In this document: positions 20,757 to 40,257 of the stretch, in pieces
Layout of the letters: each line of letters begins with the position of its first letter
Numbering within the stretch: position 1 is the stretch's first letter
NCBI GenBank assembly: GCA_963823345.1
Contig: CAWGLE010000004.1
Coordinates: forward strand, 385,166 to 449,165
Source: Candidatus Sulfomarinibacteraceae bacterium
Lineage (GTDB): Bacteria > Acidobacteriota > Thermoanaerobaculia > Thermoanaerobaculales > Sulfomarinibacteraceae
Direction: 5' to 3'
DNA length: 64,000 nucleotides
Translations under genes and position numbers: made by a program
Notes under the pieces: model-generated
The model's database searches: none
Seen by the model: the letters and a program-made list of their open reading frames with translations, nothing else
Told to the model about the DNA's origin: nothing

Positions 20757-20816
20757 TGTCAAAGGATTTTTAACGTTGCCTCGAACACCTTGACGGCATC
20801 GGGGGGGGGCCACATG
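20757..20816 (+). promoter_or_regulatory. Candidate promoter block of pilus-tip cluster 1
   Basis: TGTCAAAGG (20757), N24, TTGACGG (20790), N13, CCACATG (20810). The same block with the same first spacing precedes cluster 2 (31123, 31156, 31177). Confidence 0.45.
20801..20809 (+). repeat. G9 homopolymer inside the putative -35/-10 spacer of cluster 1
   Basis: GGGGGGGGG read directly. The equivalent position in cluster 2 is a mixed sequence. Confidence 0.8.
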
Positions 20817-21458
20817 CTAGGAATGATGAAGTGTTCAACGAATGAACCGATGGTCGTGCACGGTGGTTCCGGAAGCCAACGTGGATTCAGTCTCGTCGAG
20901 ATGATGGTGGTGGTGGCCATGATCGCCCTCATCCTCGGCGTGGCCCTTCCCAACCTGTGGCGTGCCGCCGTGCGCGCCGACATGACGAGCCAGGTGGCGA
21001 TGATCCAGCAGTCGATCGGCGTGTCGCGCATTTACGCCATCAAGAACAGCAGCCAGGTGGCTCTCCAATTGCTCCCCGACGATACTCCGATCGCCAAGTA
21101 TGCCATCCACGCATGGGTCGATGCCAACGGCAACGGCGCCTTGGACTCCGGGGAAGAACGGGTGGGACAATGGCCGATGACCGGCGAGATCACGATCGGC
21201 CCCGAGGCTGGCAACTCGAGCCACACCCTGCATCCGCTGGACGGCGATGCCCTGGGCGTGGTGTTCTTCGCCAACGGCACGGCCGTCGTGCACGACAACC
21301 AGGTCGGCACCGGGCAGGGGGCAGTGGTGCTCCAGGACACCTATGAGAACAAGCTGCGGATCGTCATCCAGGGCGGATCGGGGTCGGTTTATTCCGAGAT
21401 GTGGGACTACGAAGAGGAAGCCTGGATCGCCAATCCGAAGAATCTCTGGAGGTACTGA
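20814..21458 (+). CDS. FimT/GspH-like minor (pseudo)pilin, copy 1
   Basis: Prepilin-type N-terminus ...GSQRGFSLVEMMVVVAMIALILGVALPNL, followed by a GspH-like region. The start is ATG 20814 or 20823/20826. The track ORF start at 20583 overlaps the NHL gene and was rejected. Confidence 0.75.
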   Translation: MLGMMKCSTNEPMVVHGGSGSQRGFSLVEMMVVVAMIALILGVALPNLWRAAVRADMTSQVAMIQQSIGVSRIYAIKNSSQVALQLLPDDTPIAKYAIHAWVDANGNGALDSGEERVGQWPMTGEITIGPEAGNSSHTLHPLDGDALGVVFFANGTAVVHDNQVGTGQGAVVLQDTYENKLRIVIQGGSGSVYSEMWDYEEEAWIANPKNLWRY

Positions 21459-21919
21459 TGGCAGGCAGCGATACACCGTCGGCAAGGAACTCGGCCGGCT
21501 TTACCCTGATTGAGATCCTGGTGGCCCTGGTCATTCTCTCCTTTGTCGCCCTCGGCATCGCCGGTCTGTTCACCCACGCCGTCAAGACCAACGCATCGGG
21601 CCACGACTACGCCCTCCTCGCCACCGAGGCCCGGTTCGCGCTGGAGACCCTGCAGGCGCTGCCGTTCGACCACGCCGATCTCACGATGGCCGGGTCGCCC
21701 CACACGATGGCCCCGGTCAACCCCAACTTCACCATCACCTACACGATTGTCGACTACGACATCGACAACTGGCAGCAGGCCTCAGCCGGCTCGTGGACGC
21801 AGGCGGCGACGACCACCGACGCCAACGTCAAGCGGATCTCGATGACGGTGGCGTCCACCAACCAGGTCCTCGATGGACGGCGCGTCTTCACCGTCTCGAG
21901 CCTCAAGATTCCGGGGTAA
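21458..21919 (+). CDS. pilV: PilV-like minor pilin (only in cluster 1)
   Basis: TGATG overlap with the previous stop. MAGSDTPSARNSAGFTLIEILVALVILSFVALGIAGLF. Confidence 0.7.
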   Translation: MAGSDTPSARNSAGFTLIEILVALVILSFVALGIAGLFTHAVKTNASGHDYALLATEARFALETLQALPFDHADLTMAGSPHTMAPVNPNFTITYTIVDYDIDNWQQASAGSWTQAATTTDANVKRISMTVASTNQVLDGRRVFTVSSLKIPG

Positions 21920-21923
21920 GGTC

Positions 21924-22995
21924 ATGCGCAGAACTCAACGCGGTTTCACCCTGATCGAGCTCCTGGTCGCATCGGCCGTGTTCGCGATCTTCATGATCGG
22001 CATCCTCAACCTCCTCGACTCCTCGACCAAGGTCGCGAAGATCGAGTCCTCGCTCGCCGACACCCAGGAAAACGTCCGCTTCGCCGCCTACCACATCATG
22101 CGGACCGCCCGGATGATGGGCGGCGCGACCATGCCGGTCGCGGCCGATCCGTGGCCGGCACCGATCAGTGGGTGTCCGGAGAGCTCATCTCCAACGCCTC
22201 CGGCACGGTCCAGATACCGGGTTTCGGCGGGGTGACGGTGATGCCGGGCTCGGACGTCTTGACCCTGCGCGGCTTTTTCGAGATCTCGCCCTTCTTCACC
22301 AACCCCACGAGCGTCATCGTCGACTCGGACACGGTTACGATCGCCCAATTCAAAGGGATGAAGCGTTCGACCCCGCCGAAGACCTCATCAACAACATCAC
22401 GAGCTTCACGCCCGCCGCCCTCGAGGGCCGCGGCATCGTCTTCATGGGTGAAGGCAGCTATTGCGTCGGCAGGGTCGATTCCGGCGCACAGTATTTCGAT
22501 GCCGGCACGGCGACGAGCAGGATTCACATCCACCACATGGAGGACACCTCGTTCTGGGGCACCCTGAACACGGACTGGACCTACCCACCGGGCTTCCAGG
22601 TCTACCGGGTCGGCATTCTCGAGTCCTACACCTACTTCGTGAGCCCCGACAACGTCCTGCGGCGGGTGCGGATCTCCGGGGGCAGCCCGGAGGCCGAGCC
22701 GGTGGCGATCAACATCGGCGGCCTGCAGGTGGCGTTCGGGTTCGACGCCGATGCGAACGGCGCCATCGAGGGCGCCGAGTGGATCGAAAACCCCGCCGGG
22801 CCGACCGCGCTGGTCGGCCTCGAGGACCTCACCCTGCGGCTCGCCGTCCTCGGACGGACGGACGTCACGGTGCCCGATTGGATCGAACCCGAGTCCACCT
22901 TCACGGTCTTCGACGGCGACGCGCAGAACAAGGACAGGACCGCCAAGTGGCGTCGCGTCGACGTCGAGGTCAACCTGCGCAACTACAAGTTCTGA
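21924..22995 (+). pseudogene. pilW: PilW-like minor pilin, copy 1, with two frame changes (about 22149 and 22347)
   Basis: [34 protein letters not shown].... It continues in a second frame (GTDQWVSGELISNASG...RGFFEISPFF...) and a third (FDPAEDL...LEGRGIVFMGEG...WRRVDVEVNLRNYKF). It is colinear with the intact paralog at 31854-32945. Both shifts fit one missing base in a C or G run. Confidence 0.7.
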
Positions 22996-23002
22996 GGGAG
23001 CG

Positions 23003-23537
23003 ATGATGCAACCGAACACCCTGCCGATCACAGGATGCCGCCGGAAAAGTCTCCGGCGAGCGCGGCGCGGCGCTGATTCTGGCCCTGATGGTGTCGCTGG
23101 TGCTGGTCTTTCTCGGCCTCGGCGTGCTGTTGCAGACCTCGCTCGGGCTGCAGGCCTCGGGCACCGACCGCTGGGTGACCAAGGCGCTGTACGCCGCCGA
23201 CGCCGGCGCCATGATGCAGATCAGCATGATCCAGGGGGGCGTGTTGGGCTCGACCGGCTCGTTCGTCCTGGTCGACGACCCGAACCTCGGCGGCCTGCTC
23301 AAGACCGAGTTCACCGTCACCGTCGACCGATTCTGCACCACCGAGCCCGACCAGCCGGTGCAGGGGTACGAGGCGGGCGACGAGGAAGGCTACAGCCGGC
23401 GCTTCTTCCACCTGCGCTCGCAGGCGGTGCGCAACGTCGGTGATCTCGCGGGTCTGACCCAGGCGGCGGTCGAGGCGGACGTCGCGTCCCAGCCTTTCAA
23501 GAACGATCAGTTCGTCCCTGTGGTCCAGTGCTACTGA
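23003..23537 (+). pseudogene. pilX: PilX-like protein, copy 1, with a frame change near 23036
   Basis: ATG 23003 (MMQPNTLPITG) is in a different frame from the conserved body ...[54 protein letters not shown].... There is no in-frame start for the body. Confidence 0.6.
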
Positions 23538-23557
23538 TGCGGAGCGGGAGAACAGCT

Positions 23558-25559
23558 ATGAGACACCAGCGATTGATCACTGCGGCGGCCCTGGTCGCGG
23601 CCCTCGCGACGGCCGGGTCGATGACGGCGGACGACCGCAACTTCATGACCGCGGCGGCGGCGCCGCCCAACCTGATCTTCATCCTCGACACGTCGAGCTC
23701 GATGGTGCTCAGCCCGGAGGTGACGACCGAAGGTGACCCGCCGGTCCCGGCGGCCCTCGAGGGCGCTCTCCTGTCATCGGGCAACGTACCGGGGGCGGGG
23801 GACGACCCCTACTCGCGGATGGGGATCGCGAAGAGGGTGCTCAAGGACTTCCTCGACGACGTCGGCGTGGCCAACGTGGTCCTCGCCGGCTACGCCCAGG
23901 CGGAGCCCGCCGACGGCTCCAACGGCGTGCCGCTCAAGCACTGGGTGTACGAGGCCAGGGCGCAGGACCGCTTCCACATGCTGGAGGCGAGCTACGCCTA
24001 CCGTTTCGGCTATGCCGAGAACCACGCCGGCATCCTGCTCGACAACCCGGGCGAGATCTACAGCGCAGAAGATGATCGGCTACAAGCTCTACTTCGACCC
24101 GGCGACGACCGCGGTCACCGAACGCTTCGGTTATGTCAACGCCTACGACACCGGCTACACCGAAGACGCTGCCTGACGGCTCCACGGTGCGTCTGCCCTA
24201 CGATCTGATGCCGGTCTACTTCGGCAACTGCTTCATGGACGACGGGGGCACACCGGCGGACGACACCGACGACACGCCCCGCTGCTGGGACACCACGGGC
24301 GAACCCGCCACCACCATGGTCTTCCCGTTTTACGCCTCAGGTTCCTACGACATCGTGGACGGCCACATGGTGTCGGAACGGTGGTACTACGGCGACCCGG
24401 GATCCCTGACCTTCCCCGACTGCGAACCCTCGATCACGCCCACCGCCGACAACCCCGATGACGGCTGTCTGGCGGAGTGGGAGGAAGTCTCAGGCGCCAG
24501 CATTCTCCAGCACAAGCGCCGGGTCCACCTCGAGATCCCTGAGACCGTCAACAGCCAGCCCAACCACTTCCTCGCGGTCGACTCCGGGGGCAACCGGGTC
24601 GGCAACGCGGTGGAGAGCGACACCCCCGGCAACGAGAACTACGACGGGCTCGGCGGCGCCGACGCCGACTACGACGGCGACGACTCGAACGACTGGGTGC
24701 TGTATGTCGCCTCGGTCGAACAGCGGAACTACAAGACGCTGTGCGCCGCCGTCGGGTCGTCGCTTCCTGGACGCCGACCCCGACCAAGACCGAAGAGGAG
24801 TACTGCGGCGGGTTCACGATCCCGACGTTTTCCTCCCAATTGAACGCCAGCTACCTCTATACGATGTATGCGGACGTCACCAATCAGACCGGGTACACCG
24901 CGGAGCTCGTGTCGCAGCTGGTTCGACTGGGGTCAGGGCCACGCCGCGACGGACTACGTCAACTACCAGTGTTTCGGTGGTCTGTCGGGTTTCGCAAACG
25001 CTCCGGCGAACTGCTCGAGCACGCCCGCGTCGTACATGTACTGGAATGACGACACAGGCACCTCGGGCGCCGCCGACGGCCGGTATGCGCGGCCTCTGGA
25101 CACTGCCAAGGTCTTCCCCTGCACCCCGGGCAACTGCGACCGGTTTCCAACTCGCTCACCAATAACTCCACGAGGCGGTGGCTCGGCGTGCTCAACTCGT
25201 CGGCCACGACGTCCACAACGGCATCTACCAGGTGTGCTTCGGGTTCAATCTCGTAGGCGCGGCGCCGGACGGCAGCGACTACTCTGTGTCCCGACATCTG
25301 CGCCGTGACCACCGGCGGCAGCTCCGCGACCCCGACCAACACGCCGGTCGCGACCTCGACGCCGACCCGGACACCGACCCCCGGCGGGCCGACAGTCGAC
25401 GCCGACAGCACAACGACCCCGTCGGGTGGAGGAACGGCCACCCCCACACCGACCGTCGGGTTCGCGGCGACCTCGACGCCGACGCCGAGCAAGACCCCGA
25501 CCCCGCGTCCGCCGACACCGACGCAGACGCCGAGCCGCACCGCGACCCCGGTCGGTTGA
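23558..25559 (+). pseudogene. E1: secreted MIDAS (DxSxS) protein with a Thr/Pro-rich tail, about 7 frame changes
   Basis: MRHQRLITAAALVAALATAGSMTA..., ILDTSSSMV (23687-23701), [19 protein letters not shown]. Pieces in alternating frames are colinear with E2: QKMIGYKLYFDP, LPYDLMPVYFGNCF, NPDDGCLAEW, NHFLAVDSGG, DADYDGDDSNDWVL, VHNGIYQVCFGF. Ends ...TPTPSKTPTPRPPTPTQTPSRTATPVG. Confidence 0.6.
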
Positions 25560-25577
25560 TTGGAAGAGGAGACAGCC

Positions 25578-28500
25578 ATGATGAACACTGAATTACAGCA
25601 ACAAGCGACTCTCTCGATCGTCCGGTGGGGGTTGACCCGCTCGGAGGCTTTCTGCGCCTGGGGGCCGTCGGGCTCCTGTCCTCGTCGCGGCCGGGACGGT
25701 GCAGGCGGGCGTCTTCCCGGACCAGGCGGCGTTGACCCTTCAGATCTCCGACAACATCGATGACAGACGTCACCAACCCGTACGGCGGCACCTTTCCCTC
25801 GTGTGCGACGTGCCCGTACGTCCACTGGACGGACGGAGGCTCTGTCACCACGTGCATTCAGGATGCAATATGTGGCACGACCATCACCAGCGATGCCCGG
25901 GGGGCGTGGGGAGTCAACTATTTGCAGGGAATGGCGAGCGCCACGAACTGGTCGCTATCTCATTCCCAAGATCTCCCGGCCCTCCGACCCGGGTTTGTTG
26001 CAACCCAGTGGACCAACATCCAGATCGAGTACGATTTCGAGGTCGAGCAGCTCAGCAAGGACGGCATCATCTGGGCCGCCCAGGACGCGGACAACAACGC
26101 CTCCCCCGAGGCGGGGTACCTCTTCCGGATCCGGGGGTCGTCGCCGTTCAACTCGAGCCAGGACAATCACCCCAGCGCCGAGGCCTCCACGGTCGACCCC
26201 TCCTTGTATAGCCGAAACTGTTCAGCCTGGGATCGATCTGATGCAAGATCACCGGCGAGGACACCTACCAGCTGATCGGCACCAGCTTCATCAACTCGAA
26301 CTGTCCTGAATCCTTCCAATGCCGACCACCACCTACGATGTCGCCGACACCACCGACGTCAAGACCAAGTACATGCTTCGAAAACGTCCCGTTTCGGATG
26401 CGCCTCTCCTGGTTCTGCGGCAACCTGCGGGTTCAGATCGTCCGCATCGTCCACCCGACGACCGCGACCGAGGCCACCTACAAGGGCTGCGGCGCGGCGT
26501 GCGGATCCACCGGCTTCGACGAACATCGAGGACTGCTGGTGCACCGTGGTCGAGTGGTCGCCGTTGCCGCTCGAGACACCGCTCGGGCCGGGCGCGGCCG
26601 GCCTCTGGGTGAGTTCGGGGAGTACAACCAACTACATTTCCAACAAGTACGACAACTTCAAGTTCAGCTACTGGGACCCCAACTGCGGCCTGGTGTGCGG
26701 GCCGTGGGTCGGCTGGGGCAACGCCCGCACCGACCTCATCCCGTTCAAGTTCCTCTACGAGGGCTCGCTGCTTGACATCTCGGCCGGCCGCAACTTCGAC
26801 GTCGCGGCCGACCGCGGCAAGATCGACGTCAAGACCGAGGCGCCGGCGTCGGCCTCGTCCTACAACCACTCCGCCGACTCGAACCCCTACTGCAACGGCT
26901 GGAAACTGTACGAAGACCTGCCCGACCCGACCGATACGACCGGCAACGTCGATGACATCCTGGCCTTCCTCGAACCGATGTACAGCGCGGTCGACTTCGA
27001 GAGCAATGGTGGCAGCCCCCCCGCCTTTTCGTGGGTGGATACGGCCGCAGAGGTTGTCGAAGACAACCCGCATCCCGTGGTTGCCGACGGCTCGACCCCC
27101 ATCAACTCGTCGCTGCTCCAGGCCTTCGACTGGTACGTCGACAAGAAGACCAACTCCTCGTGGTCGTCGGACGCCTTCGACTCCTGCCGCCAGTGGTACG
27201 TGATCCTCATCACCGACGGTGAGGAGGCGTGCGAGCCCGGCAACCCCAACGCCGTCTGCGACACCGGCGGGGCGGCCGAGAAGTTCGCCAACCCGAGCGT
27301 GACCGGGGTTCCCCCGCTGCCGGTCTACACCATCGGTTTTTCGCAGTCGGTGGATGCGGACTCGCCGCTCAAGTGCATCGCCGACCAGACCGGCGGCTCC
27401 TTCATGACGGCGGAGAGCCAGGAGGAGCTCAAGAACGCCCTCTACGAGGTGTTCTACGACATCGAGGACCAGGCGCGGTCGTTCGCCCCCTTCAAGGTCG
27501 CGCCGCCGCCATCGAGCGCCGGCGGCAGCGCGACCCGCGACTACCTCGCGGTCTTCCCGCTGTTCCAGCCGCTCGAAGGCAAGAGCCTGTGGGCGGGCAA
27601 CCTCTGGGCCTTCCCGCTGAACAGCGGCCAGCCCGTCCTGCCGACGATCGGCGACTGCGAGGTGGACACCACGCAGATGGTGTGGAACGCCGCCGACGCC
27701 CTCCAGGCGCAGGTCGACGCCCACAGCGAGGCCGACCCGAAGCGGTTCGTCTACATGGGCAGCGATCTCAGCGGGTCGTGGCAGCGTTATGACCTGGCGA
27801 CCATGCCCGATGACACCGACCTGCAGACCGAGTTCCGATCGAAGCTCAGCCTGCCCGCCGGAATCACCGATCTCGACGAGCAGAAGGTGATCGCGCAACA
27901 GATCGTGAACTTCCTCCGCCTGGCCTACATGGACAACGATTTCGACGGCTCGAACGCGGGCCCACCGCTCGATCCGCGTCCGGACGGCTACCCGGTGCTG
28001 GGCGAGTTCTTCCACTCGCAGCCGGTGGTCGTCAACCCGCCCAACAACCTGCAGTACTTCTACGACTGGGGGTTCGGCGCCTCGGGCGAGGTCGGGGTCC
28101 ACAACTACGGTGATTTCATCACCCGCCAGGCGAAACGGCGGCGGTTGGTGCTCGCCGGTTCGAACGACGGCATGCTGCACGCCTTCGACGGCGGGTTCTG
28201 GGACCGCGAGCGATCGACGGTCGGGGAGACCTACGACGAGATCCACGACCTCGGCAACGGCACCGAGCTCTTCGCCTGGGTGCCGCAGGCGGTGATGCCG
28301 ACCCTCTACGACATCACCTCCGGCGGGTCCCTCGATCATGCACTTACCCAAGTATCTGGTCGACGGGCCCATCACCAAGGGCGACGCCTTTATCGACCAC
28401 GACCGTGAAAGCGGCACCCCTCGCGAGTGGCGCACGCTGGCCCTGGTCTCCATGCGGCGCGGCGGCCGCGGCATCGCCGCCCTCGATATCACCCAGGCCG

Positions 28501-29714
28501 ACCCCACCAGCGGCTCCGACTACATCCCGACGGATTCGGTCTTCCCCGGCTGCCGGGTCGGCAGCACGTCCGGTTGCGACGGCGAGTTCCCCAAGGTCCT
28601 GTGGGAGCTGGCCGACACCGGCGACAGCGACTCCAACGGGAAGCCCGACCTCGGCTGGACCTGGTCCAAACCGGCGATCGCCCGGATCGCGGTGTACAAC
28701 TCCTCCGATCCGCAGCAGCCGGACGACCTCTTCGTGGCCTTCTTCGGCGGCGGCTGGGACCAGAACGAGGCCGACGAAACCGGCACCTTCCTCTACTGCG
28801 TCGACCTCGCGACCGGGACGGTGCTGTTCAGGGAAAAGGTGCTGTTCGCGGAAAACGTCCCCGTGGATGTGCCCGGCGGGGTGACCGCTCTCGACTCCGA
28901 CATCGACGGTTTCCACGACCGCATCTACTTCGCCGACTCCTACGGCGGCGTGTGGCGCCTGCAATATCCGGCGCCGACCAGCTCGAGCGCCACCGGCGCC
29001 ACCGCCGGCACGTTCACCAAGATCTTCGCCTTCAACGCCGGCTCGCCGAGCTTCCCCGACCGCCAGGAGTTCTTCACCCGTCCGGTGCCGGTGCCGGCGC
29101 GGTTCAACGGCTCGAACTACACCTGGGGTCTCGCCCTCGGCAGCGGCGATCGCGCCAATCTCGAGCGTGAGGACTCCGGCTTCGACCACTTCTACTTCCT
29201 GATCGACGCCGAGGACGGAGACACGCGCGGCATCTCGGACCTCGTCGAAATCGACTACACCGAGCTCAACGGCGGCTTCGACTGCTCGGGCCTCACCGAC
29301 CAACCGCTCGATCCCCCCAAGTACGGGTGGTACCTGAGCCTGCGGGAGAACGAAAAGGTCATGTTCGACGCCTCGGTGCTCGATGGCTACATCTTCTTCC
29401 CCACCTTCGATCCCAGCACCGCGACCGCGACCAACCCGCCGAACACCTGTGAGACGGCGAGCGGCCCCGAAACCCGGGGCGACCGGGCCGTCGAGTGCCG
29501 GGCGGCGGGCATCGGCCGCACCTACAGGTTGTGGTACGAGTGCGGCCTCGGTGAGTACACGGAGCACAATGATATTATTACGGGGCAGGAGGTTGTCGAC
29601 ATCGACGGTGAATCCTCGGTGTGGTCGGCGACCTCGGATCCGACGACCGTTCCTCACAAAGACCCGGTACTGTTGAATCGGCAGCACACGGTGACGAACT
29701 GGCGACAGGAGTGA
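25578..29714 (+). pseudogene. pilY1: F1: PilY1-like tip adhesin, copy 1, about 9 frame changes (8 within 25.6-26.55 kb, one near 28326)
   Basis: SD GAAGAGGAG precedes ATG 25578. Long intact stretches 26546-28330 and 28338-29714 contain ITDGEEAC, VYTIGFS, LGEFFHSQPVVVNPP, LAGSNDGMLHAFDGG, ALDITQADP and the DSDIDGFHD Ca-loop (28893-28919). It is colinear with F2. Confidence 0.7.
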
Positions 29715-29716
29715 AC

Positions 29717-30565
29717 ATGAGACCTGGGCTCTGGGTCCTCGGCATCACGATCGCGGCGGCCGCCCTGGCCACCGCGATGGATATCCCGATGCGCGACGGG
29801 ACGGTCGTCACGGCCGACAGCTACAAGGTCACCGGGTCGTACGTGATGATCGTCCTGGCCGACGGGTCCCAGGTGGCATTCGATGTGGCGGATGTGGACC
29901 TTGCGGCTCTGCGCGAGGCGGAGGCCGCGGCCGCCGCCGCATCCGGCGACGAGCCCGCGCCGGAAGCGGAAGCACAGTCGAGCGACACGATCTCCAGCGG
30001 ACGTTCGTTGAAGCACGCCGGCGCCGCAGCCGACGACGCGGCGGACGGGCTCGCCATCACCGATCGCGACGTCAAGCACATGCGCGGCAGCGGCGTGCGC
30101 GGCGAGGACGAGCAGCAGGAGGCCGACGCCTCGGGGACCGAAACAGGTCCCGAGGGGGACTACCAGGTGGGCGGCAGCGTGGTGCTCAACAACGTCCGGG
30201 TCGAACCGGCCGGGGAGGGCCGCTGGCAGATTCAGGGCGAGGTGGTCAACCGCAGCCCGCGGCCGGTCCTCAACGTGACCGTCAAGCTCGAGACCCTGGG
30301 CGGCGGCGAGCCGTGGAGCGGCGAGGTCCGGGCCGCCGGCGTCCTCGGACCCGACGAGAAGGCGGCCTTCACCCACAGCTTCATGGCCGAGGTGCCCGAG
30401 GGCAAGGCGCAGCCGAGCATCCGGGCGAGCGTGTTGTGGATGCAGGAGGAGTCGCGGCGCGAGCCGGACTACACCAAGGCCGGCGGGGTTCCCCACCCCA
30501 GCAACCTGCCGCTGCAGTTCGGCGGCGTCACCGGCGCCGACGTGCGGCCGACGCCCGTCCAGTAG
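29717..30565 (+). CDS. H1: hypothetical secreted protein (cluster 1 only)
   Basis: ATG lies 3 nt after the F1 stop. MRPGLWVLGITIAAAALATA signal-like N-terminus, an Ala/Glu/Asp-rich linker, and a beta-rich C-domain. Ends ...DVRPTPVQ. Confidence 0.55.
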   Translation: MRPGLWVLGITIAAAALATAMDIPMRDGTVVTADSYKVTGSYVMIVLADGSQVAFDVADVDLAALREAEAAAAAASGDEPAPEAEAQSSDTISSGRSLKHAGAAADDAADGLAITDRDVKHMRGSGVRGEDEQQEADASGTETGPEGDYQVGGSVVLNNVRVEPAGEGRWQIQGEVVNRSPRPVLNVTVKLETLGGGEPWSGEVRAAGVLGPDEKAAFTHSFMAEVPEGKAQPSIRASVLWMQEESRREPDYTKAGGVPHPSNLPLQFGGVTGADVRPTPVQ

Positions 30566-30571: not shown

Positions 30572-31033
30572 ATGCCGCTGAACTTCCGCAAGTCAGCGGT
30601 CGCGATCGGGCTGGTCGCGATCGTTGCGCTGGCTCTGCTGTGGCGGGCCTGCCGCTCCCGCGATGACTCTCCGCCGCCGCCTCCGACGGACTTCGCTACC
30701 GAAAAGGTGCGCCTGGTCTCTCCCGACCTCGACCTCGAGCTCCTCGAGGTGCGAGGCATCGTCAACCCCGGCTACACCGACTGGGCCTGCGTCTTTTCGT
30801 GCCGCGAAAACGGCGGGTGCCGGGCGGAGACCCGGGTACGGATTCTCTACACAACGGGGGGCGAGAAGCGCACCCTCACCCTGAGCGGCCACTTCGACGC
30901 CGACCGCGGCCAGAATATCCGCGTCGGGCGGATGCAGCGTCCGCCGGTCGCGGTGGATCGGGTCGTGGAAGTCACCGTCGAGGTGGAGGCGCCCTTCGTT
31001 CCCGGTGCGCCGCGACCCACCCCGGTGCAGTGA
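30572..31033 (+). CDS. G1: small single-pass membrane protein with a YTDWAC-x4-C-x5-C motif
   Basis: MPLNFRKSAVAIGLVAIVALALLW TM segment. ...PGYTDWACVFSCRENGGCRAE...VGRMQRPPVAVDRVVEV...GAPRPTPVQ. Paralog of G2 (39793-40257). Confidence 0.6.
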   Translation: MPLNFRKSAVAIGLVAIVALALLWRACRSRDDSPPPPPTDFATEKVRLVSPDLDLELLEVRGIVNPGYTDWACVFSCRENGGCRAETRVRILYTTGGEKRTLTLSGHFDADRGQNIRVGRMQRPPVAVDRVVEVTVEVEAPFVPGAPRPTPVQ

Positions 31034-31122
31034 CGCCGCCCGGCGCGCCCGGCTCCGGATGTGACGACCGTCACCCTTCAGGACAGATATCACCCGTGAT
31101 TTCTGGTCCATAATCCCTTTTA

Positions 31123-31183
31123 TGTCAAAGGTTTTTGAATGACGGTGGCGACCTGTTGACGGTCCGCCCGCGGGTGCCACATG
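31123..31183 (+). promoter_or_regulatory. Candidate promoter block of pilus-tip cluster 2
   Basis: TGTCAAAGG (31123), N24, TTGACGG (31156), N14, CCACATGATAGTAC (31177). Paralogous to 20757-20816. Confidence 0.45.
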
Positions 31184-31227
31184 ATAGTACTGACCTACCG
31201 GTCGGGAACGGAGCCCATCGTGATGAG

Positions 31228-31854
31228 ATGCCGCCAACACCGTCGACAGCCGACCGCCGCCGGCGCCGGAAAGTGCAGCGGGGTTTCACCCTCAACGAGA
31301 TGATGGTGGTGGTGGCGATCGTCGGCCTCCTCGCGGTGATCGGGATGCCCAACCTCCATCGGGCGGCGATCCGGGCGGATCTCCTGGAAGAGGTGAAGGC
31401 GGTCCGCCAGGCCCTGGCGGTGGCCCGGATGAAGGCGCTCAAGAGCGGCCGCAGGGTGGCGGTTGCGCTGATCCCCGGTGCAACGGCCCAACCCGGCCAC
31501 TCGGTGGTGGCCTGGGTCGACGACGCGGCGGACAAGAGCCTCGACCCGACCGACGAGGTGGTCGGCCGGTGGAACATGGGGGTCAAGACCCTGATCGGTC
31601 CGGACGACACCGCCGAGGACTGGTCGTTGGCGAGTCTGTCGGGGTCGCAGAAGGGCGTCATCTTCCTCCCCGCCGGGAACGCCATCGCCCACGGAACGGA
31701 CATCGGCATCGGGTTCGGTTCGGTGGTGCTCTCGGATCTGAAGGGCAACCGGATCCGGTTGTTGATCGCCGCCGGCGCGGGCACGGTGCGTGAGCAGATG
31801 TGGGACCCCGACCTCGGCGTGTGGTCTGACGAGATCAGGTTCTGGAGGTACTGA
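31228..31854 (+). CDS. FimT/GspH-like minor (pseudo)pilin, copy 2
   Basis: MPPTPSTADRRRRRKVQRGFTLNEMMVVVAIVGLLAVIGMPNL.... Ends ...FWRY, like copy 1 (...LWRY). Confidence 0.75.
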   Translation: MPPTPSTADRRRRRKVQRGFTLNEMMVVVAIVGLLAVIGMPNLHRAAIRADLLEEVKAVRQALAVARMKALKSGRRVAVALIPGATAQPGHSVVAWVDDAADKSLDPTDEVVGRWNMGVKTLIGPDDTAEDWSLASLSGSQKGVIFLPAGNAIAHGTDIGIGFGSVVLSDLKGNRIRLLIAAGAGTVREQMWDPDLGVWSDEIRFWRY

Positions 31855-32945
31855 TGATCGGCATTCGATCCCTGAAATCAGGCCGCAGAGCGGGTTTCAC
31901 CCTGATCGAGGTGGTGGTGGCGATGGCCGTGTTCGCCATCTTCATGATCGGCATCCTCAACCTGCTCGACTCCTCGACCAGGATCTCGGAGATCGAGAAG
32001 GCGTTGTCCGACACCCAGGAAAACGTGCGCTTCGCCGCCTACCACATGACGCGCACCGCGCGGATGATGGGCGGCGCCGGGATGCCGTTTGCGGGCACGG
32101 TCGCCGGCGGCCCCAGCTGGATCGCCGGCGAGCTGCTGTCGAGCCAGTCCGGCAGTCTCACGACTCCCTATCCGCTCGGCGCCATCAACGTGCTGGACGG
32201 AACGGACGTCGTGACGATCCGGGGGTTCTTCGAGGTCCCGCCGTTTTTCGTCGACAAGACCGACGTCAATCTGTCGCTCGACCGGATCGAGGTCACGGAG
32301 TCCATCGGCACACATGTGATCAACAGGGATTTCGACGCCATCGATGTCAATCAACTGGAGGGCCGCGGCCTGGTGTTCATGGGCGAGTTGGACCGCAGCC
32401 AGTACGCCGTGGGCCAGCTCGGGCCGTCCTCGACCATGGACGGTACGGGTCCCGACCGGACGCTGACCCTGATGATCAGCGACGCGCCGGCCGCCTGGTG
32501 GGCGGGGCTGAATGAGACCGGCGCGGCGACCACGCCTTCGTTCGAGGTCTACCAGGTGGGCGTGCTCGACGCCTACACCTACTTCGTCGACCCCGAGTTC
32601 CGCCTGATGCGGTTGCGGGCCGACAAGTCGGCCCAGGGCGCCACGCTGCAGCCGGTGGCGGTCAACATCGGCGGTCTGCAGGTGGCGCTGGGGGTCGATG
32701 TCGACAACGACGGTCAGGTGGACGTCTGGCAGGGGGAACCTACGGAAGCCGGCGTCAGCGGCAATCGGGTGATCTCGATGCGCATCACGGTGCTCGGGCG
32801 GACGCCGGTCGAGATTCCCGGCTGGGAGGAGCCGGCGGCCACCTTTGGCGTCGGCCAGGAGGCCCAGACGGTCGACGCCGCCGGCCGCAGCGCCAAGTGG
32901 CGCCGGGTCCAGGTCGTGGCGACGCTGCGGAACTACCTGTTCTGA
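31854..32945 (+). CDS. pilW: PilW-like minor pilin, copy 2 (intact)
   Basis: TGATG overlap. ...[56 protein letters not shown]...; 363 aa. Confidence 0.8.
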
Positions 32946-32952
32946 CGGGGGG

Positions 32953-33502
32953 ATGATGATGATCGAGCCCACTTCGACCGCGCGCACCGGCAGCCGCGAC
33001 AACGAGCGCGGCGTGGCGCTGATCATGGCCCTCCTGGTGTCGGTGATTCTGGTGTTTCTCGGCATGGGGCTGTCTGTTGCAGACCTCTCTCGGGCTGCAG
33101 GCCGCGGGGACCGACCGCTGGGTGGCCAAGGCGATGTACGCGGCCGATGCCGGCGTCATGATGCAGATCCAGATGATCCAGGCCGGCGCCATCGGCTCTG
33201 CGGGCAGCTTCGTGTTCCAGGACGACCCCGATCTCGACGGTTTTCTCAAGGGCGATTACACGGTCTCCATCTCCGAATTCTGCGAGACCCGCCCGATGAC
33301 CACCGTGTGGGCCGACGACTCGGCGTGGTCCTCGGAGTTCAAGGTGCGCCACTTTCACTTTCGAAGCGATGCGGTGCGGACCATCGGCGGGCTCGGCGGC
33401 CTGAGCCGGGCGGCGGTCGCGGTGGACGTCTCGGCGTGGCCGTTCGTCGAAGACCAGCTGGTGCCGGTGACCCAGTGCCGCGGCGCCGAGTGGGGGGGCT
33501 GA
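32953..33502 (+). CDS. pilX: PilX-like protein, copy 2, apparent 1-nt insertion in a G4 run at 33066-33069
   Basis: [39 protein letters not shown], then frame +1 ...[30 protein letters not shown].... Confidence 0.7.
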
Positions 33503-33504
33503 AC

Positions 33505-35592
33505 ATGAAACGACTCCGATGCTCGACATCGCTCGCCCTGGTCGTGGCGCTCCTCGCGGCATATCCGTTGACCGCGGACGACAAGGACTTCCTGCGCAAA
33601 CGCGCGGCGGCGCCGGTGCTGGTCTTCATTCTCGACACGTCGGGCTCGATGGTCGGGTCTCCGGAAGAGCCGGGGATGATGCGCGGCTCCCGCGTCGGTT
33701 ACGGCATGGTGCCCGGCGCCGGCGATGATCCCTACTCGCGGATGGGTATCGCCAAACGGGTGCTCCGGGACTTCCTCACCAGCGCCAGTGATGCCACCTA
33801 TGCCCTGGCGGGCTACGCCCAGGAACTGCCCTCCGACGGCTCCAACGCGGTCCCGCAAAAACACTGGGTCTACGAGGCCCGCGACGGCGACCGCTTCAGA
33901 ATGGTGGAGCCCAACTACGCCTACCGCCTCGGCTACGCCGAGACCTTTGCCGGGGTCCTGCTCGACAACCCGGCCGACATCCTCAAGGGGAGGATGATCG
34001 GCTACACGCCGTACTTCGACCCCTCCGCCCCCATCCTCGACCGCTACGGCCCCACCAACGCCTGGGCCACCGGAATCGTGGAGGGCGACAGTGAGCTCGA
34101 GCTGCCCTACGATCTCCTGCCGATGTATTTCGGCACCTGTTTCGTCGACAACAAGGAGACCCCGCTCGACACCACCGACGATGTGACCGTCTGCCGCGAC
34201 GACGTCTTCCCGTTCTATGCCACGGGCCAACGCGACGTCAACGGCGACATGATGACCGACGAGTTCTACTATGGCGACCCGGCGTCCGGGAGGTTCCCGG
34301 ACTGCACGCCCAACCGGACGCCCGATGCGACGAATCCGGACGATGGATGTCTGTCGAGATGGTGGACCATCGGCAGCGGCACCTCGACCGACAACCGGCG
34401 CCGGGTGCAGGTGCGGATCCCGTCGACCGGTCCCGAGGGCAAACCGAACCACTTTCTGGCGGTCGACGATACCGGCGCCTATGTCGGCAACGAGCTCGCG
34501 GCGGACCCCGGCAACGACGAGGACTATGACCTCGACCTGACGCCCGACGCCGACTACGACGGGTCCAAGGACAACGACTGGGTGCTCTGGGTCGAGGTGG
34601 TGGAAGAACAGCGCAGCCGGACCTGCAATTACGTGATCTCCCCGACTCCGACGACGACGCCGACCGAGACCCCCACGCCCACTCCGACCATCACCGCGAC
34701 GCCCACCCAGACCCCGACGGTGACGACCACTCCGACGGTGTCGCCCACAATGACCCCGCCGCCGGTGAATTGCAGCGACATCACCCTGGAGATGCGTCCA
34801 CCGGCGAGCGGCATCCTGCAGGCCTGGATCAACAACGGCACCACCTCCCCGATCGAGATCACCCGCACGGTGGTGAGCTGGGATCCGCCGGACTCGTCCT
34901 ACTACCTGGATTGGATGGGCGTGTACTCCGGCTCCTATTCCCACAACATCGGGACCCACTATTGGGGTGACGGCCAGCCGTCCGTCGACTACGGACCGAT
35001 CACCGACGTCGACACCGAGGACCCGTCGCTGGCGCGGATCCCGGCCGGCTACAGATTCGGTTGGTACGCCGACATCGACAGCAACTTCACCCACAACGCC
35101 TTCCATGAGGTGTGTGTCGACGTCGACGTGATGAACGAGGGTCTGACCTGCAGCGGCATCTGCGACAGCTACGAGCTCATCCAGCCGCCGACGCCCACCC
35201 GGACCCCGACCCGCACCAACACGCCGTACGCCGGCACTCCGACCCGGACGCCGACAATTACTCCGACCCGGACGCCGACGATCACGCAGACCCCGTCGCA
35301 GACGCCGACCATCACGAGGACACCGACCAGGACCCTGTCCCCGACCATCACGCAGACGCCGACCATCACGAGGACACCGACCAGGACCCTGTCCCCGACC
35401 ATCACGCAGACCCCGTCGCGGACGCCGACGAGGACCGCGACACGGACCCCGTCCAACACGCCGACCCGGACGGCAACCCCGACCATCACGCAGACCCCGA
35501 CGCGGACGCCGACCAGGACTTCGACTTCGACTCCGCCCCCGGTACCCACGGCGACCAGGACACCGCTGCCGACGGCGACGGAGATCCAGTGA
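33505..35592 (+). CDS. E2: secreted MIDAS (DxSxS) protein with two Thr/Pro repeat tracts (intact, 695 aa)
   Basis: ATG lies 3 nt after the pilX-2 stop. [37 protein letters not shown] (33634-33648), [21 protein letters not shown] linker at about 34630-34770. C-terminal TP tail at about 35183-35589. Confidence 0.75.
35301..35408 (+). repeat. Two perfect tandem 54-bp copies inside the Thr/Pro-coding tail of E2
   Basis: GACGCCGACCATCACGAGGACACCGACCAGGACCCTGTCCCCGACCATCACGCA occurs at 35301-35354 and again at 35355-35408. Flanked by degenerate copies. Confidence 0.85.
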
Positions 35593-35612
35593 TGAGCCGG
35601 CAGGAGGCAGCC

Positions 35613-38600
35613 ATGAGTCGTCAGAAGCGGCCCGCCAGACACCTTCCAGCGGCGTTCGGGGCCTTCGCCTGCGGACTGCTCACCATCGTGGTGGGCGGGT
35701 CGGCCGCATGGGCGCAGAGCTTTCCCACAGCCCCGCCCGTCGAGGTGATGTTCGACGATTTCGAGACGACCACCCCGCCGCGGCCGCCGGACGACCCGCT
35801 CGACGGCAGCGGCGCGATCTGGGACGAGTGGAGCTACAGCTCGACCGATTTCGAGTACAACCCGTCGGCGGTGCCGGCGCAGATCCGTGGCGGGATCTGG
35901 GGCGTGCGGTGTCTCCAGGAGAACTCGACCCGGAGGACGGAACCACGAGGGCTACCTGGTGGTCAAACAGTCGATGCCGGGCAACCCCGGGTACGACCCG
36001 GCGGAGTGGACCAACTTCCGGCTGGACGTCGATCTGACGGTGACCCGCAACGGCATCCCGGGCATCGCCTGGGGCGTCCGCGACCCCGACAACGACGGCA
36101 TTCCCGATCAGGGGTATCTGTTCACGCTGCAGGGCTTCCCCACCGAGGGCCAGGCCGCCCGGGGCATCAGGGCGACCTGGCAGGTCAACCGCATCGACGG
36201 CGAAGGCAGCTCGACCGTGGTCGAGCAGGGGACCGTCAACCTGCCGTCACCTGACGACTACACCAGGTTCCTGGTCGACTACAAGGCCTTCCGCCTCCGC
36301 CTCGAGTGGTACTGCAACGACCTCCAGGTGCGCATCCAGCGGGTCTACAACACGTCGGTGATCCCGCAGAGGTTCTACGGGTGCGGGTGCGGAACCGAGA
36401 GCCTCGACCCCGAAGCCTGCTGGTGCACCCTCGCCGAGTGGAGTGACCCGGGCGCCAGCCTGACGCCCGGCATCACGGGTCTCTACCACAGCGGCCGGCG
36501 CAACGACCCGCCCGCTGACAGTCTGAACGAGACCATGTGGGACAACTTCAGAGTCTCGGCGTGGAACCCGGGCTGCGGTGAATCCTGCGATCCCTGGACC
36601 GTCTGGAGCACGACCTCGACCACCCAGATCCCGTTCAAGCTGTTGTACGAGGCCGGCCTGTTCGACTACTCGGCCGGGCGCAACGCCGAGGGTCGCAAGA
36701 TCGACGTCAACTCGTTTGCACCGTCCACCACGTCGGCCAACAACTCGACCACCACCAACTACTGCAACGGCTGGAACCTGTTGGTCGATCTGCCGGCGCC
36801 GCTGGCGCCGACCGAGATCGACGACATCAGGTCCTTCCTCCAGCCCATGGCCACCGCGGTGGACTATGTCGCCGACGGCGGCGGCTCGTTCAGCTGGCAG
36901 GACACCTTCGACAACGATCCTTCAAGCCCCGCCTACAACCCGGTGCCGATGATCGCCAACGGTTCGACCCCCATCAACAACTCGCTGCTCGACGCCTTCG
37001 ACTGGTACGTCGATCAGGTGACCATCGGCGACTGGGCCACCGACCCGCTCAAGGCGTGCCGCGAGTGGTACGTGGTGTTGATCACCGACGGCGCCGAGAG
37101 CTGCGCCGGACCGGGCCAGTTCGCCTGCGACCCGGGCCAGGCGGCCTCCAAGTTCGCCGATCCCGGCATCGAGGGGGTGGAGGCGGTCCCGGTCTACACG
37201 ATCGGGTTCTCGGAGTCCCTGAGCGGCAGCGCCACGGATACGGGGCCGGGTGCGCCGGAGGACCTCACGTGCATCTCCGAGCAGACCGGAGGGATCTACT
37301 ACAGCGCTCGCAATGCGGCCGAGCTCAGCCAGGCCCTCCAGGATGTGTTCTATTCGTTGCAGACCGAATCCCGCACCTTCACCCCCTTCCGGGTGTCGCC
37401 GCCGCCGTCCGCAGCCGGTCCGGACAACCAGACCCAGGACGCGCTGGTGGTGTATCCGCTCTTCAACGCCGCCAAGGAGACGTCGCTGTGGCGGGGCACC
37501 CTGTACGGTTTCCGCTTCAACGGCAGCAACGCCTCGATTCCGAACACCGGCAACTGCGAGATCGACCTCTCCCAGGTGGTGTTCGAAGAGGTGAGCCAGA
37601 GAAGCTGGGACGCCAATGCGCGGCTGGCTGAGCAGCTCGCCGCGCCCACCCCGGAACGGCACGTCTTCATGGGCAGCGATATCACGGGCAACTGGGCCAG
37701 GCACGATCTCGCGACCATCCCCACCAACGACACCCTGCGGACCGAGTTCATGGACCTGATCGGCACGACGGATCGGGTGAAGGCCCAGGAAGTGGTCAAC
37801 TTCGTGCGCGGTCTGTGGATGGACGACGATCCGACCGCCTCGCCCGACCCCAAACCCGACGCACGTCCGGACGACAGCTCGTCGCTCGGCGACATCTACC
37901 ATTCGCAGCCGGTGATCGTGAGCCCGCCCAGCCGGTCCCTGTACTTCTTCGATTACGGCTTCAGCGCCGCCGGCGACGAGGGTGCTCACGACTATGCCGA
38001 TTTCATGCGCAAACACGCCAAGCGGCGGCGGGTGGTGCTCGCCGGCGCCAACGACGGGATGTTGCACGCCTTCGACGGCGGCGTCTGGGATCGCGACCGC
38101 GCCGGAGCCGGTGAGACCTATGACCGGATCCACGATCTGGGGAACGGCTCCGAGCTCTTCGCGTACGTGCCCCAGGCGGTGATGCCGAAGCTCATGAACC
38201 TGACCTATATCGCCGACCAGCAGTGGATGGTGGACGGCCAGATCGAGGTGAGTGACGCCTTTATCGACCACGACCGCGACAGCGGCACCCCTCGCGAGTG
38301 GCGCACCGTAGCCATCACCACCATGCGGGAGGGCGGCCGCGGCCTCGTCGCCCTCGACATCACCCAACCGGACCCGATCTCGTCGTCGCCGGATTTCGAG
38401 CCCGTGATCTCCGCACTTCCGGGGTGTACCGACGGGACCACCGCCGGGTGCGACGGCGAGTATCCGAAGGTGTTGTGGGAGTTTTCCGACACCGAGGACG
38501 CCGACTCCAACTGCGCCGAGGATCTTTCGGGCGACGACTGCTGGCCGTGGTGGGACCTCGGGTGGACCTGGTCCAAACCGGTGATCGCCAGAATCGCGAT

Positions 38601-39648
38601 CTACAACCCGTCGGAGGCCAACGAGCCCGACGACCTCTTTGTCGCCTTCTTCGGCGGCGGCATCGGCGACGAGTTCGCGCCGGACAGGACGGGCCGCCAC
38701 TTCTACGGCGTCAACGTCGAGACCGGCGACGTGATCTTCAAGCACCCGATCGGCGCCCCGGTGCCGGGCGCCCCGACCGCCCTCGACACCGACGACGACG
38801 GCTTCCACGACCGGATCTACTTCGCCGACTCCGACGGCAGCGTGTGGCGCATCCAGTACCCGAAACCGAACGCAGCCGAGGCGACCGGAGCGGAAGCCGC
38901 CGAAGATGGTTCCGCGCCGGGCCAGATCGTCAGGATCTGGGACTTCCGCTCGAGCTTCGCGGACCGCCAGATGTTCTTCCACCGGCCGGTGACGGTCTCG
39001 ACGGTGGCCGAAAACGGCACGAATTACTGGGCGCTCACCCTGGGCAGCGGCAACCGCCAGAACCTCGGCGAGACATTGGACCGTGTCAGTCACTTCTTCT
39101 TCCTTCTCGATGTGGGTGACAACACGATGCGGGACGCCAGCTACCTGACCTCCGTCGACTACACCGAGCTCGACGCTTCGTTCACCTGTGCCGACGGGAG
39201 CGCCCTCGACCCCGAGAACCCCGAGGCCGAGGCGCAGAGCTTCGGCTGGTACCTGACCCTGCGGCCCAACGAAAAGGTCATGTGGGAGGCGCCGGTGATC
39301 GACGGCTACATCGAGTTCCCCACCTTCGACTCCACGGAAGGCGTGGTGGCGGTGCACAACGCCCCCAACCAGTGCGGCAGCGAGCCGCTCCCGGACGAGG
39401 GGGATGGTGAGGACGAACCGGACGTCCTGTGCGCGACCTCCGGCATCGGTCGGGTCTACAAGCTGTGGTACCAGTGCGGGATGGGGGATTACACCGAGAC
39501 CAACACCCCCGTCGTCGGGGGCGCGGTCTACACCGAAGGCAACACCACCAGGACCTACTACCCGACGATCGACCCCGACGAGGAGCCCGAAGAGCACGAG
39601 TACCAGCACCCGCCCAACCACGTGGTGACCAACTGGAGACAATTCTGA
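35613..39648 (+). CDS. pilY1: F2: PilY1-like tip adhesin, copy 2 (signal peptide, jelly-roll/lectin-like N-domain, vWA-like domain, PilC/PilY1-type beta-propeller); one apparent 1-nt insertion near 35939
   Basis: AGGAGG precedes ATG 35613 (an alternative ATG 35592 overlaps the E2 stop). MSRQKRPARHLPAAFGAFACGLLTIVVGGSAAWA. After ...CLQENSTRRT the frame shifts +1 into the 1253-aa ORF. Motifs: WYVVLITDGAES, VPVYTIGFS, LGDIYHSQPVIVSPP, LAGANDGMLHAFDGG, ALDITQPDP, DTDDDGFHD (38785-38811), IYFADSDGSVWR. Confidence 0.8.
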
Positions 39649-39666
39649 GGAACGCATTCTGAAACG

Positions 39667-39697
39667 GCCGGCGGGGCGGACCTACCGCCCCGCCGGC
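39667..39697 (+). terminator. GC-rich 13-bp stem hairpin after pilY1-2 (terminator-like, no T tract)
   Basis: GCCGGCGGGGCGG (39667-39679), loop ACCTA, CCGCCCCGCCGGC (39685-39697). Confidence 0.35.
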
Positions 39698-39792
39698 GTG
39701 ATCCACAGAGCAGACCGTGGAGCCGGGTCGATCCCCACTCCTGCGATGGCGCGTCGTGCGCGAGCCTCGAAAAAACTGGTAGAGTGCAATCC

Positions 39793-40257
39793 ATGTTCAG
39801 ACGTTACCGCTGGTTGCTGTTGACTGCCGTCGTCGTCCTCGGAATTGTCGCGGCGTTCGTCGTCTGGCGCGGGCGCGGGCTGGCACCGACCGCCGCTCCC
39901 GGTCTGCAGGAAACCTTCACCGTCAGCGATGTGCCCGTCGAGTCACCCGGGCTGAACATCGACGTCGGTACGGTGAAATGGACGCACCACCCGGAATACA
40001 CCGACTGGGCGTGCCTGATGCGGTGTCGCGAGAGCGAGGGCTGTCACGCCGAGATCCAGTTGGTCGTCGCGTACATCTCGGACGGCGCCGAAAAGCGCCT
40101 CACCATCGGCGGCCAGATCGACTCCGGGTTCGGCGAGACCGTGCGCATCGGCAGGGCGCAGCGCCCCGCCGTCAAGGTCGACCGGGTCGTGGGCGTCAGG
40201 GTCAAGGTTCTCGAGGCCTTTCACCGCGGCGCTCCCACCCCCACACCCATGGAGTGA
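39793..40257 (+). CDS. G2: small single-pass membrane protein with a YTDWAC-x4-C-x5-C motif
   Basis: MFRRYRWLLLTAVVVLGIVAAFVVW TM segment. ...PEYTDWACLMRCRESEGCHAE...IGRAQRPAVKVDRVVGV...GAPTPTPME. Confidence 0.6.
   Translation: MFRRYRWLLLTAVVVLGIVAAFVVWRGRGLAPTAAPGLQETFTVSDVPVESPGLNIDVGTVKWTHHPEYTDWACLMRCRESEGCHAEIQLVVAYISDGAEKRLTIGGQIDSGFGETVRIGRAQRPAVKVDRVVGVRVKVLEAFHRGAPTPTPME

Follow-up and report, generated by a model that had tools for sequence, protein, structure and literature searches.

Two tandem gene clusters on the contig CAWGLE010000004.1 of a Candidatus Sulfomarinibacteraceae bacterium (GCA_963823345.1) resemble the operons for minor pilins and PilY1 of type IVa pili. In both clusters, a large secreted protein, here termed E, is encoded between pilX and the pilY1-like gene, here termed F, and an earlier note made from the sequence alone had listed E as an extra secreted protein of unknown role. 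The question raised by this locus is what such a protein contributes next to PilY1. It was addressed in a stretch of 64,000 nucleotides (nt) of the contig with a G+C content of 64–72%, in the following called the window. The N-terminus of E was identified as the N-terminal segment of the PilY1 von Willebrand factor A (vWA) domain, which F lacks. From their sequences, E and F together appear to be PilY1 encoded as two polypeptides, and the vWA domain with its MIDAS (metal ion-dependent adhesion site) is probably rebuilt from the two chains. The explanation which accounts best for the locus as a whole, and which we consider likely, is that of two tandem, lineage-specific tip operons with a PilY1 distributed over two chains, which would function as proposed in the last section.

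Proteins E and F and their relation to PilY1

PilY1 of Pseudomonas aeruginosa combines an N-terminal vWA domain, which contains a MIDAS of the type DxSxS...T...D, with a C-terminal calcium-binding propeller (PMC8806160). The decisive result for E was obtained in an exhaustive search of 1.8 billion representatives with the E profile. Positions 1–106 of mature E matched residues ~25–136 of dozens of proteins of 1300–1750 amino acids (aa) outside the E family, and the PilY1 propeller (PF05567) was present in 36 out of 37 of these proteins that were scanned. In profile–profile comparisons with seven single-chain PilY1 proteins, positions 1–106 of E aligned with residues 26–136 (probability 98–98.6%, E-values 1e-13 to 1e-15). 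The F profile aligned with residues ~394–1277 of the same proteins, starting at its position ~295 ('NPVPM.ADGSTPI'; E-values 1e-56 to 1e-70), and a counterpart in F of the N-terminal PilY1 segment was found with none of the seven. The two sets of matches are colinear, without any overlap. The single-chain proteins carry DxSxS in the E-like part and the T and D residues of the MIDAS in the F-like part; in between lies a variable insertion of ~260–450 residues including a CxGW element, which is also found in F. Below the Pfam thresholds, the E fragment matched VWA_2 (positions 1–46, E-value 0.014) and the F fragment matched VWA (positions 106–170, E-values 0.05–0.19). No match was found between E and two distant PilY1 proteins (P0216 and P0217).

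A fused ortholog, P0230 (1316 aa), comprises the complete N-domain of E (22–367), immediately followed by F with its vWA part and propeller (374–1316; 40% identity, E-value 6e-156), and it has the same C-terminal end, VVTNWRQE. It is encoded at locus L050 (GCA_964438135.1, CAYTJW010000050.1) between PilX and H, the latter being the secreted protein that follows F in the first cluster of the window. The neighbourhood is the same (map, infA, rpmJ, rpsM-K-D, rpoA, rplQ, beta-CASP, s162, a small open reading frame (ORF), a histidine kinase, FimT-like, PilW, PilX, PilY1, and an H-like ORF). The presence of a fused protein at a syntenic locus therefore argues for E plus F as one PilY1 unit. In contrast to the proteins of the window, P0230 is a single polypeptide in which neither the Pro/Thr linkers and the payload known from E nor the F-type signal peptide and sandwich are present; it has a degenerate MIDAS, and no PMT_2/NHL gene is located upstream. 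Because single-chain PilY1 proteins of this layout are widespread, we infer a gene fission inside the vWA insertion, after which a linker, payload, and tail would have been added to E, and a new signal peptide and the sandwich to F.

The N-domain of E (~360 residues) is highly conserved among 42 homologs, with the invariant residues D44, S46, and S48 and the invariant motif PGxGDDxxSRxGxAK. The MIDAS residues T307 and D347 are invariant in F, which contains no DxSxS. A complete MIDAS, found on one chain in the P. aeruginosa type, is absent from F alone and is present at the sequence level in E plus F. The main argument for a working MIDAS is that all five of its residues are invariant although they are located on two proteins.

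The C-terminal payload differs between the two E proteins. E2 carries an immunoglobulin (Ig)-like sandwich (predicted local distance difference test score (pLDDT) ~85–95) and E1 an unrelated domain of ~200 aa; neither the payload domains nor E as a whole matched a Pfam or NCBIfam family. The AlphaFold2 (AF2) model of E (pLDDT 52.7) is confident for residues 420–556 only, and its PDB matches are generic adhesin-type sandwiches. A profile search of PDB with full-length E gave matches to Pro/Thr low-complexity sequences only. Several more distant E homologs have a PA14 domain (carbohydrate-binding/adhesin) as payload (L047, positions 7420–7836; P0075, P0078, P0080, and P0083–P0085), which indicates that the C-terminal module of E is exchangeable. 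The assumption that E is a duplicate of the vWA domain of F was rejected, since no profile–profile similarity was detected between them.

F has ~57 close relatives (≥39% identity), which are separated by a gap from ordinary PilY1 proteins. The best PDB match of the AF2 model of F2 (pLDDT 65.5) was the C-terminal domain of P. aeruginosa PilY1 (3hx6, E-value 9e-18, template modelling (TM) score 0.60). The PilY1 calcium motif Dx[DN]xDGxxD is represented by DSDIDGFHD in F1 and DTDDDGFHD in F2 as a predicted site, and D913, D917, G918, and D921 of this motif are invariant or nearly so in 37 F sequences. The propeller is preceded by the invariant elements 'GSTPI' and 'LITDG' and by a 'VYTIGFS' strand. 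In PDB, the profile of this upstream region matched the vWA structure 4rck in its C-terminal part (E-value 0.003). The N-terminal sandwich of F matched no Pfam or NCBIfam family.

Organisation and conservation of the tip modules

Between 20.8 and 40.3 kb of the window, the coding signal was found exclusively on the + strand (Table 1). The gene order is FimT-PilV-PilW-PilX-E-F-H-G in module 1 and FimT-PilW-PilX-E-F-G in module 2, as described in the earlier note. The TGATG stop/start overlaps reported there (21456–21460, 31852–31856, and 35590–35594) are all present, and the quoted PilW N-termini and common F motifs were found in the translations. Two paralogous modules of minor pilins and PilY1 are also supported by the match of the cluster 2 proteins to those of cluster 1 (36–66% aa identity per matched segment). 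The end-to-end alignment of the paralogs stated in the note was confirmed for the pilins, the N-domain of E, most of F, and G, but not for the C-terminal domains of E, which differ between the modules. PilV and H are missing from module 2, and the proposal of a self-contained cassette could not be substantiated.

Table 1. Genes of the two modules and their direct neighbours in the window.
Feature	Position	Strand	Evidence and remarks
PMT_2 (GT-C glycosyltransferase) and NHL-repeat gene	18348..20724	+	kept directly upstream of module; frameshift at 19737
FimT1, FimT/GspH-like minor pilin, module 1	20814..21458	+	Pfam N_methyl E-value 1.2e-6; prepilin motif QRG/FSLVE at 20883; 39% identity to FimT2
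PilV1, PilV/GspI-like minor pilin, module 1 only	21458..21919	+	N_methyl E-value 7e-9; NCBIfam PilV and GspI weak, N-terminus only; 72% identity to PilV of L008
PilW1	21924..22995	+	three frames match PilW2; 2-nt insertion 22146-7 and 1-nt deletion 22356 vs L009; intact 356 aa in L009
PilX1	23003..23537	+	PilX_N E-value 0.007, under cut-off; 1-nt insertion 23032; 177 aa in L009
E1, putative PilY1 N-fragment, module 1	23558..25559	+	signal peptide, then first part of vWA domain including DxSxS, E-specific domain, Pro/Thr linker, payload domain of ~200 aa, and Pro/Thr tail; ≥6 frame changes in window; intact 670-aa ORF in L009 and L010
F1, putative PilY1 C-fragment, module 1	25578..29714	+	signal peptide and beta-sandwich, followed by CNGW region, remaining vWA part (GSTPI, LITDG), and beta-propeller with DSDIDGFHD; frame changes ~26200-26520 and 28346; L009 copy intact, 1373 aa, weak T4P_PilY1 match
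H1, secreted, 282 aa, module 1 only	29717..30565	+	acidic/Ala linker between small N-terminal domain and beta-rich domain; RPTPVQ at C-terminus
G1, 153 aa	30572..31033	+	N-terminal membrane anchor, three invariant Cys, C-terminal PTPVQ; 39% identity to G2
FimT2, GspH-like minor pilin, module 2	31228..31854	+	N_methyl E-value 1.2e-6; GspH E-value 5e-5, over cut-off
PilW2, unbroken, 363 aa	31854..32945	+	N_methyl; PilW PF16074 28.5 bits vs cut-off 26
PilX2	32953..33502	+	1-nt insertion 33074; intact 180-aa ORF in L003 and L009
E2, putative PilY1 N-fragment, module 2, unbroken, 695 aa	33505..35592	+	homology to PilY1 N-termini; N-domain (residues 22-385), then Pro/Thr linker, Ig-like sandwich (residues 420-556), and Pro/Thr tail of 130 aa
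F2, putative PilY1 C-fragment, module 2	35592..39648	+	T4P_PilY1 (PF05567) 57.4 bits, E-value 1.6e-15; 3hx6 fold match; 1-nt insertion 35938, not in L003/L005
G2, 154 aa	39793..40257	+	module 2 without H gene
M16 peptidase, two M16 domains	40321..42948	+	kept directly downstream of module

A Pfam check of the products, as suggested in the earlier note, identified N_methyl in FimT1, PilV1, PilW2, and FimT2, GspH in FimT2 (24.2 bits, cut-off 21), PilW in PilW2, and T4P_PilY1 in F2. The PilX_N match (16.8 bits) was under the cut-off of 25.5; the place and size of PilX are kept in 39 out of 39 related loci. Prepilin-type N-termini (GF[TS]L.E) occur exactly five times in the window, each time inside the two clusters, and this motif scan revealed no other pilin in the 64 kb. 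The core set of four pilins is complete in module 1; module 2 has no PilV, as is also the case at the loci L011, L013, L015, and L027. None of the neighbouring genes tested in the window encodes type IV pilus machinery. Minor pilin loci of type IVa pili ordinarily have no machinery genes nearby, as in P. aeruginosa and Myxococcus xanthus, and by analogy their absence from the 64 kb would be ordinary for such a locus and not peculiar.

A scan with the E profile, in which each species was represented by one genome, yielded the 39 loci. E homologs and related loci are labelled as Acidobacteriota of the class Thermoanaerobaculia, mostly 'Candidatus Sulfomarinibacteraceae', and some of the metagenome-assembled genomes (MAGs) as Holophagae. 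The order s162, s100, histidine kinase, PMT_2/NHL, FimT, PilV, PilW, PilX, E, F, H, G, and M16 peptidase is kept in almost all of them. PilX precedes E at every locus, and E is followed by F at all 31 loci with room downstream. After F, H was found in 25 of 29 cases (24 times with G behind it) and G directly in three. The neighbourhood check proposed earlier thus had a positive outcome, as homologs of E, H, and G always accompany pilY1 in related genomes. Judged by this synteny, the eight-gene module is a conserved operon of MAGs of Thermoanaerobaculia/Ca. Sulfomarinibacteraceae. Apart from the window, tandem modules were encountered only at L011, L012, L013, L015, L017, and L027, and the duplication is confined to a subclade. 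The second module usually has neither PilV nor H. L017/L008 are an exception, with FimT and PilV missing from the first module. Scans for promoters and terminators gave results at chance level, and exact-sequence look-ups of E2 and PilV1 returned no match.

The accessory proteins H and G, neither of which matched a Pfam or NCBIfam family, are confined to this lineage. In H, the signal peptide is followed by a small N-terminal domain, an acidic linker, and a domain rich in beta structure. G is anchored in the membrane by its N-terminus and contains the motif SP..P.Y.DW.C...C.E..GC with three invariant Cys residues; 36 homologs were found, among them one on the 414,582-bp contig of L001, and those with a name belong to Acidobacteriota. 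A cytochrome similar to TfcP of M. xanthus was considered for G and rejected, because there is no CxxCH motif and the His after the last Cys varies between homologs. A similar motif, PTP..(Q/E), is located at the extreme C-termini of E, H, and G (e.g., PTPTPME, RPTPVQ, and PTATEIQ). It consists of Pro/Thr residues, a hydrophobic residue, and Q/E, and is conserved across homologs and located at 35560–35589 in E, 30545–30562 in H1, 31010–31030 in G1, and 40234–40254 in G2. It was dismissed as a CTERM sorting signal, since no transmembrane helix follows the motif, and it fits no known signal.

The window starts with a ribosomal protein/secY/map/infA/rpsM-K-D operon. Upstream of module 1, a PAS/HisKA histidine kinase (15372–17798) and two small conserved ORFs are followed by the PMT_2/NHL gene (5671–8091 in L008). 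The latter is located directly upstream in nearly all related loci and is absent in L050 and L047. The GT-C enzyme could O-glycosylate the long Pro/Thr linkers of E. A strict coupling of PMT_2/NHL with the linkers was discarded: L050 has neither and fits the rule, whereas L047 breaks it with linkers and no PMT_2 at the locus. The M16 peptidase is found behind the module at nearly all related loci, encoded by two separate genes in some relatives, and this constancy suggests a functional link or a very stable synteny.

Just past the M16 peptidase, a Ser/Thr kinase with tetratricopeptide (TPR) repeats is encoded on the − strand (44187–46229); in L001 and L002, a metallo-beta-lactamase gene is located in between. 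Further downstream of the modules, a GAF-GGDEF diguanylate cyclase was found (53545–54669). This kinase and the cyclase are possible candidate regulators of surface behaviour. In the region 46209–53500, Pfam identified a MoxR AAA ATPase together with a DUF58/VWA_2 protein, and the ORFs behind them are, as we assume by eye from family resemblance, similar to a BatA/BatB/BatD-type aerotolerance operon.

Reading frames of the window and rival explanations

Six out of the 14 frames in the window are broken by indels of 1–2 nt. The earlier note had implied continuous ORFs and had joined the frames silently. According to frame plots and tblastn, the frame switches twice in PilW1, once in PilX1, at least six times in E1, three times in F1, and once each in PilX2 and F2 (22146-7, 22356, 23032, 24065, 24167, 24738, 24757, ~24900-25300, ~26200-26520, 28346, 33074, and 35938). 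For comparison, short-read contigs of three other samples were used, four in all, which are 98.6–99.1% (L003 and L005) or 96.5–98% (L009 and L010) identical to the window. Where needed, the intact proteins of L009 replaced the broken products. Indels of the window relative to these contigs coincide with the frame switches at 22146-7, 22356, 23032, 24065, 24167, 24738, 24757, 28346, 33074, and 35938. On the basis of these comparisons, the frame breaks are most likely assembly errors and not signs of pseudogenes, because every pilus module gene is an intact ORF in the short-read contigs, and because the essential map gene (8075–8850, near 8400) and PMT_2/NHL are frameshifted as well. The origin of many related genome records as long-read 'contig_N' MAGs points in the same direction. 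Two ORFs further downstream (47273–48166 and 47946–49097) overlap by 220 nt and may contain a further indel. Since single-base indels break housekeeping and pilus genes alike, an ORF-based annotation of the contig is fragmented and will miss these genes.

On account of its many frame switches, module 1 was first suspected to be a pseudogene cluster. Module 1, and in part module 2, would then be decaying, and the frameshifts would be true mutations of the strain. At least 12 frame-breaking indels in ~10 kb of module 1 compared with two in module 2 speak for such a decay, and the reference contigs, which differ by 1–4% overall and by >12% across 24400–26800, do not represent the same strain. This suspicion was dropped in view of the intact copies, L009 and L010 among them, and of the frameshifts in map and PMT_2/NHL. 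The G+C content at the third codon position also stays at 0.85–0.95 in every fragment, no large deletion was seen, the differences are mostly single-base insertions, and the relatives of the window are long-read assemblies. True decay is thus very improbable.

Several observations weigh against a PilY1 assembled from two chains. The Pfam VWA matches of the E and F fragments are below the cut-off, with none at default settings, and the N-domain of E had no sequence match in PDB. Within the 64 kb, no genes for the type IVa pilus machinery of this organism were encountered. P0230, with its degenerate MIDAS (DTSTA, and TGS for TDG), could be a secondary deletion-fusion and not the ancestral form. 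The AF2 models of E and F are poor in the relevant regions, for which reason their low confidence proves nothing, and the binding of E to F is deduced from sequence. A further point is the element 'LLVDLPxP', conserved in F ~100 residues before TDG, which could represent a first vWA strand in degenerate form and make the vWA domain of F self-sufficient. E would in that case be an independent accessory adhesin, derived from a partial duplication of a PilY1 N-terminus and attached to the tip in some other way, and F a complete PilY1 without a working MIDAS. The spacing of ~100 residues between LLVDLP and LITDG is typical of vWA domains, D88, L89, and P90 show no variation in the F sub-alignment, and P0230 carries the LLVDLP element in addition to an E-type first strand. 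The F profile, however, aligned with the N-terminal vWA segment in none of the seven single-chain PilY1 proteins. In these, CxGW is part of the vWA insertion, and in F it stands before LLVDLP, which therefore belongs to the insertion. An F fragment beginning at CNGW gave no VWA match, E and F have no mutual homology, and the invariance of T and D would be hard to explain for a dead site. An independent E, which is the main rival explanation, is thus unlikely, though less so than a decayed module. The possibility that the modules serve another type IV filament, for example, a pseudopilus similar to that of type II secretion systems (T2SS) or a secretion or uptake device, and not a type IVa pilus for motility or adhesion is given very little weight. 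It would agree with the lack of a major pilin, ATPase, platform, secretin, and prepilin peptidase in the 64 kb and with the match of FimT2 to the T2SS-derived GspH model. Against it stand the PilW model match and a PilY1 propeller that has the calcium motif and a fold like that of 3hx6, all of which are hallmarks of type IVa tip complexes, as well as a gene order as in fimU-pilVWXY1; machinery genes are, moreover, normally located elsewhere in the genome.

A putative two-chain pilus tip

By analogy, the system would work like the priming and tip module fimU-pilVWXY1, with multiple paralogs as in M. xanthus. It resembles the P. aeruginosa operon fimU-pilV-pilW-pilX-pilY1(-pilY2-pilE) in the succession of GspH-like, PilV, PilW, and PilX pilins and PilY1. 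It differs in that the vWA domain is divided between the genes for E and F, both of which have a signal peptide of their own, that pilE is absent and H and G are additional, and that the whole module is tandemly duplicated. Three clusters of minor pilins and PilY1 are described for M. xanthus, with the accessory protein TfcP in cluster_1 (PMC7541494, PMC8833165, PMC13190605). The two systems have in common several paralogous tip modules per genome, PilY1 proteins with conserved C-termini and divergent N-terminal parts, and a lineage-specific accessory protein encoded within the module. In contrast to M. xanthus, the modules of the window are adjacent and have a single PilV and a single H in common, PilY1 is split, and the accessory proteins are unrelated to the cytochrome TfcP. 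A vWA/MIDAS module is also displayed as an adhesin by a type IV pilus in Streptococcus sanguinis, where PilB is reported to be a modular pilin with a grafted vWA adhesin module (10.1101/2021.01.27.428410). The vWA domain is fused to a pilin there, whereas here it is located on a non-pilin tip protein and split over two chains. No paper was found that describes a split PilY1, these protein families, or this architecture. Four features set the system apart, namely a PilY1 in two parts, the additional proteins H and G, the missing pilE, and a tandem layout in which PilV and H are shared.

We propose that E and F are both exported by the Sec system and that the vWA/MIDAS domain is put together in the periplasm. 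E would supply the first third of the vWA domain, namely helix 1 and strands 1–3, with DxSxS on strand 1. The remaining helices, strands 4–6 with T and D, and the propeller with the calcium site would come from F. The F propeller would dock on the FimT-PilV-PilW-PilX complex and prime pilus assembly, by which the vWA domain would end up at the pilus apex, as reported for P. aeruginosa (PMC8806160) and M. xanthus (PMC7541494). The payload of E and the N-terminal sandwich of F, both at the old insertion site of the vWA domain, may form a variable, distal, and ligand-facing adhesive surface, and the two modules may provide alternative tips. As a guess, the periplasmic H and the membrane-anchored G might be helpers, perhaps for the assembly of the two-chain adhesin.

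Compared with L009/L010, a segment of 2.4 kb in the window (24400–26800) is only 86–88% identical or unalignable, whereas the rest of both modules is 97–100% identical. It covers the payload and tail of E1 and the signal peptide and N-terminal sandwich of F1, which is the site of the PilY1 fission. This hypervariable segment is in line with a variable adhesive face at the insertion site. A more tentative idea, to which we give a minor chance, is that the assembly of the tip MIDAS in trans from two chains makes the tip combinatorial, with up to four tips from two E and two F genes. Strains could then swap only the 2.4-kb segment of E tail and F head, and H and G would join or hold the chains before they are loaded onto the minor pilins.

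PilY1 is the mechanosensing, adhesive tip protein of type IVa pili, and the vWA domain is the part that touches the surface. This domain has resisted purification and structure determination (PMC8806160). If the two-chain PilY1 proposed here is correct, the system would be a natural two-fragment arrangement with which the N-terminal region of PilY1 may be expressed and studied, and the large vWA insertion would be a structurally tolerant plug-in site for adhesin modules. A role would be assigned to more than 80 "hypothetical" proteins of uncultured sediment and soil Acidobacteriota, and two further conserved families, H and G, would be tied to pilus tips.

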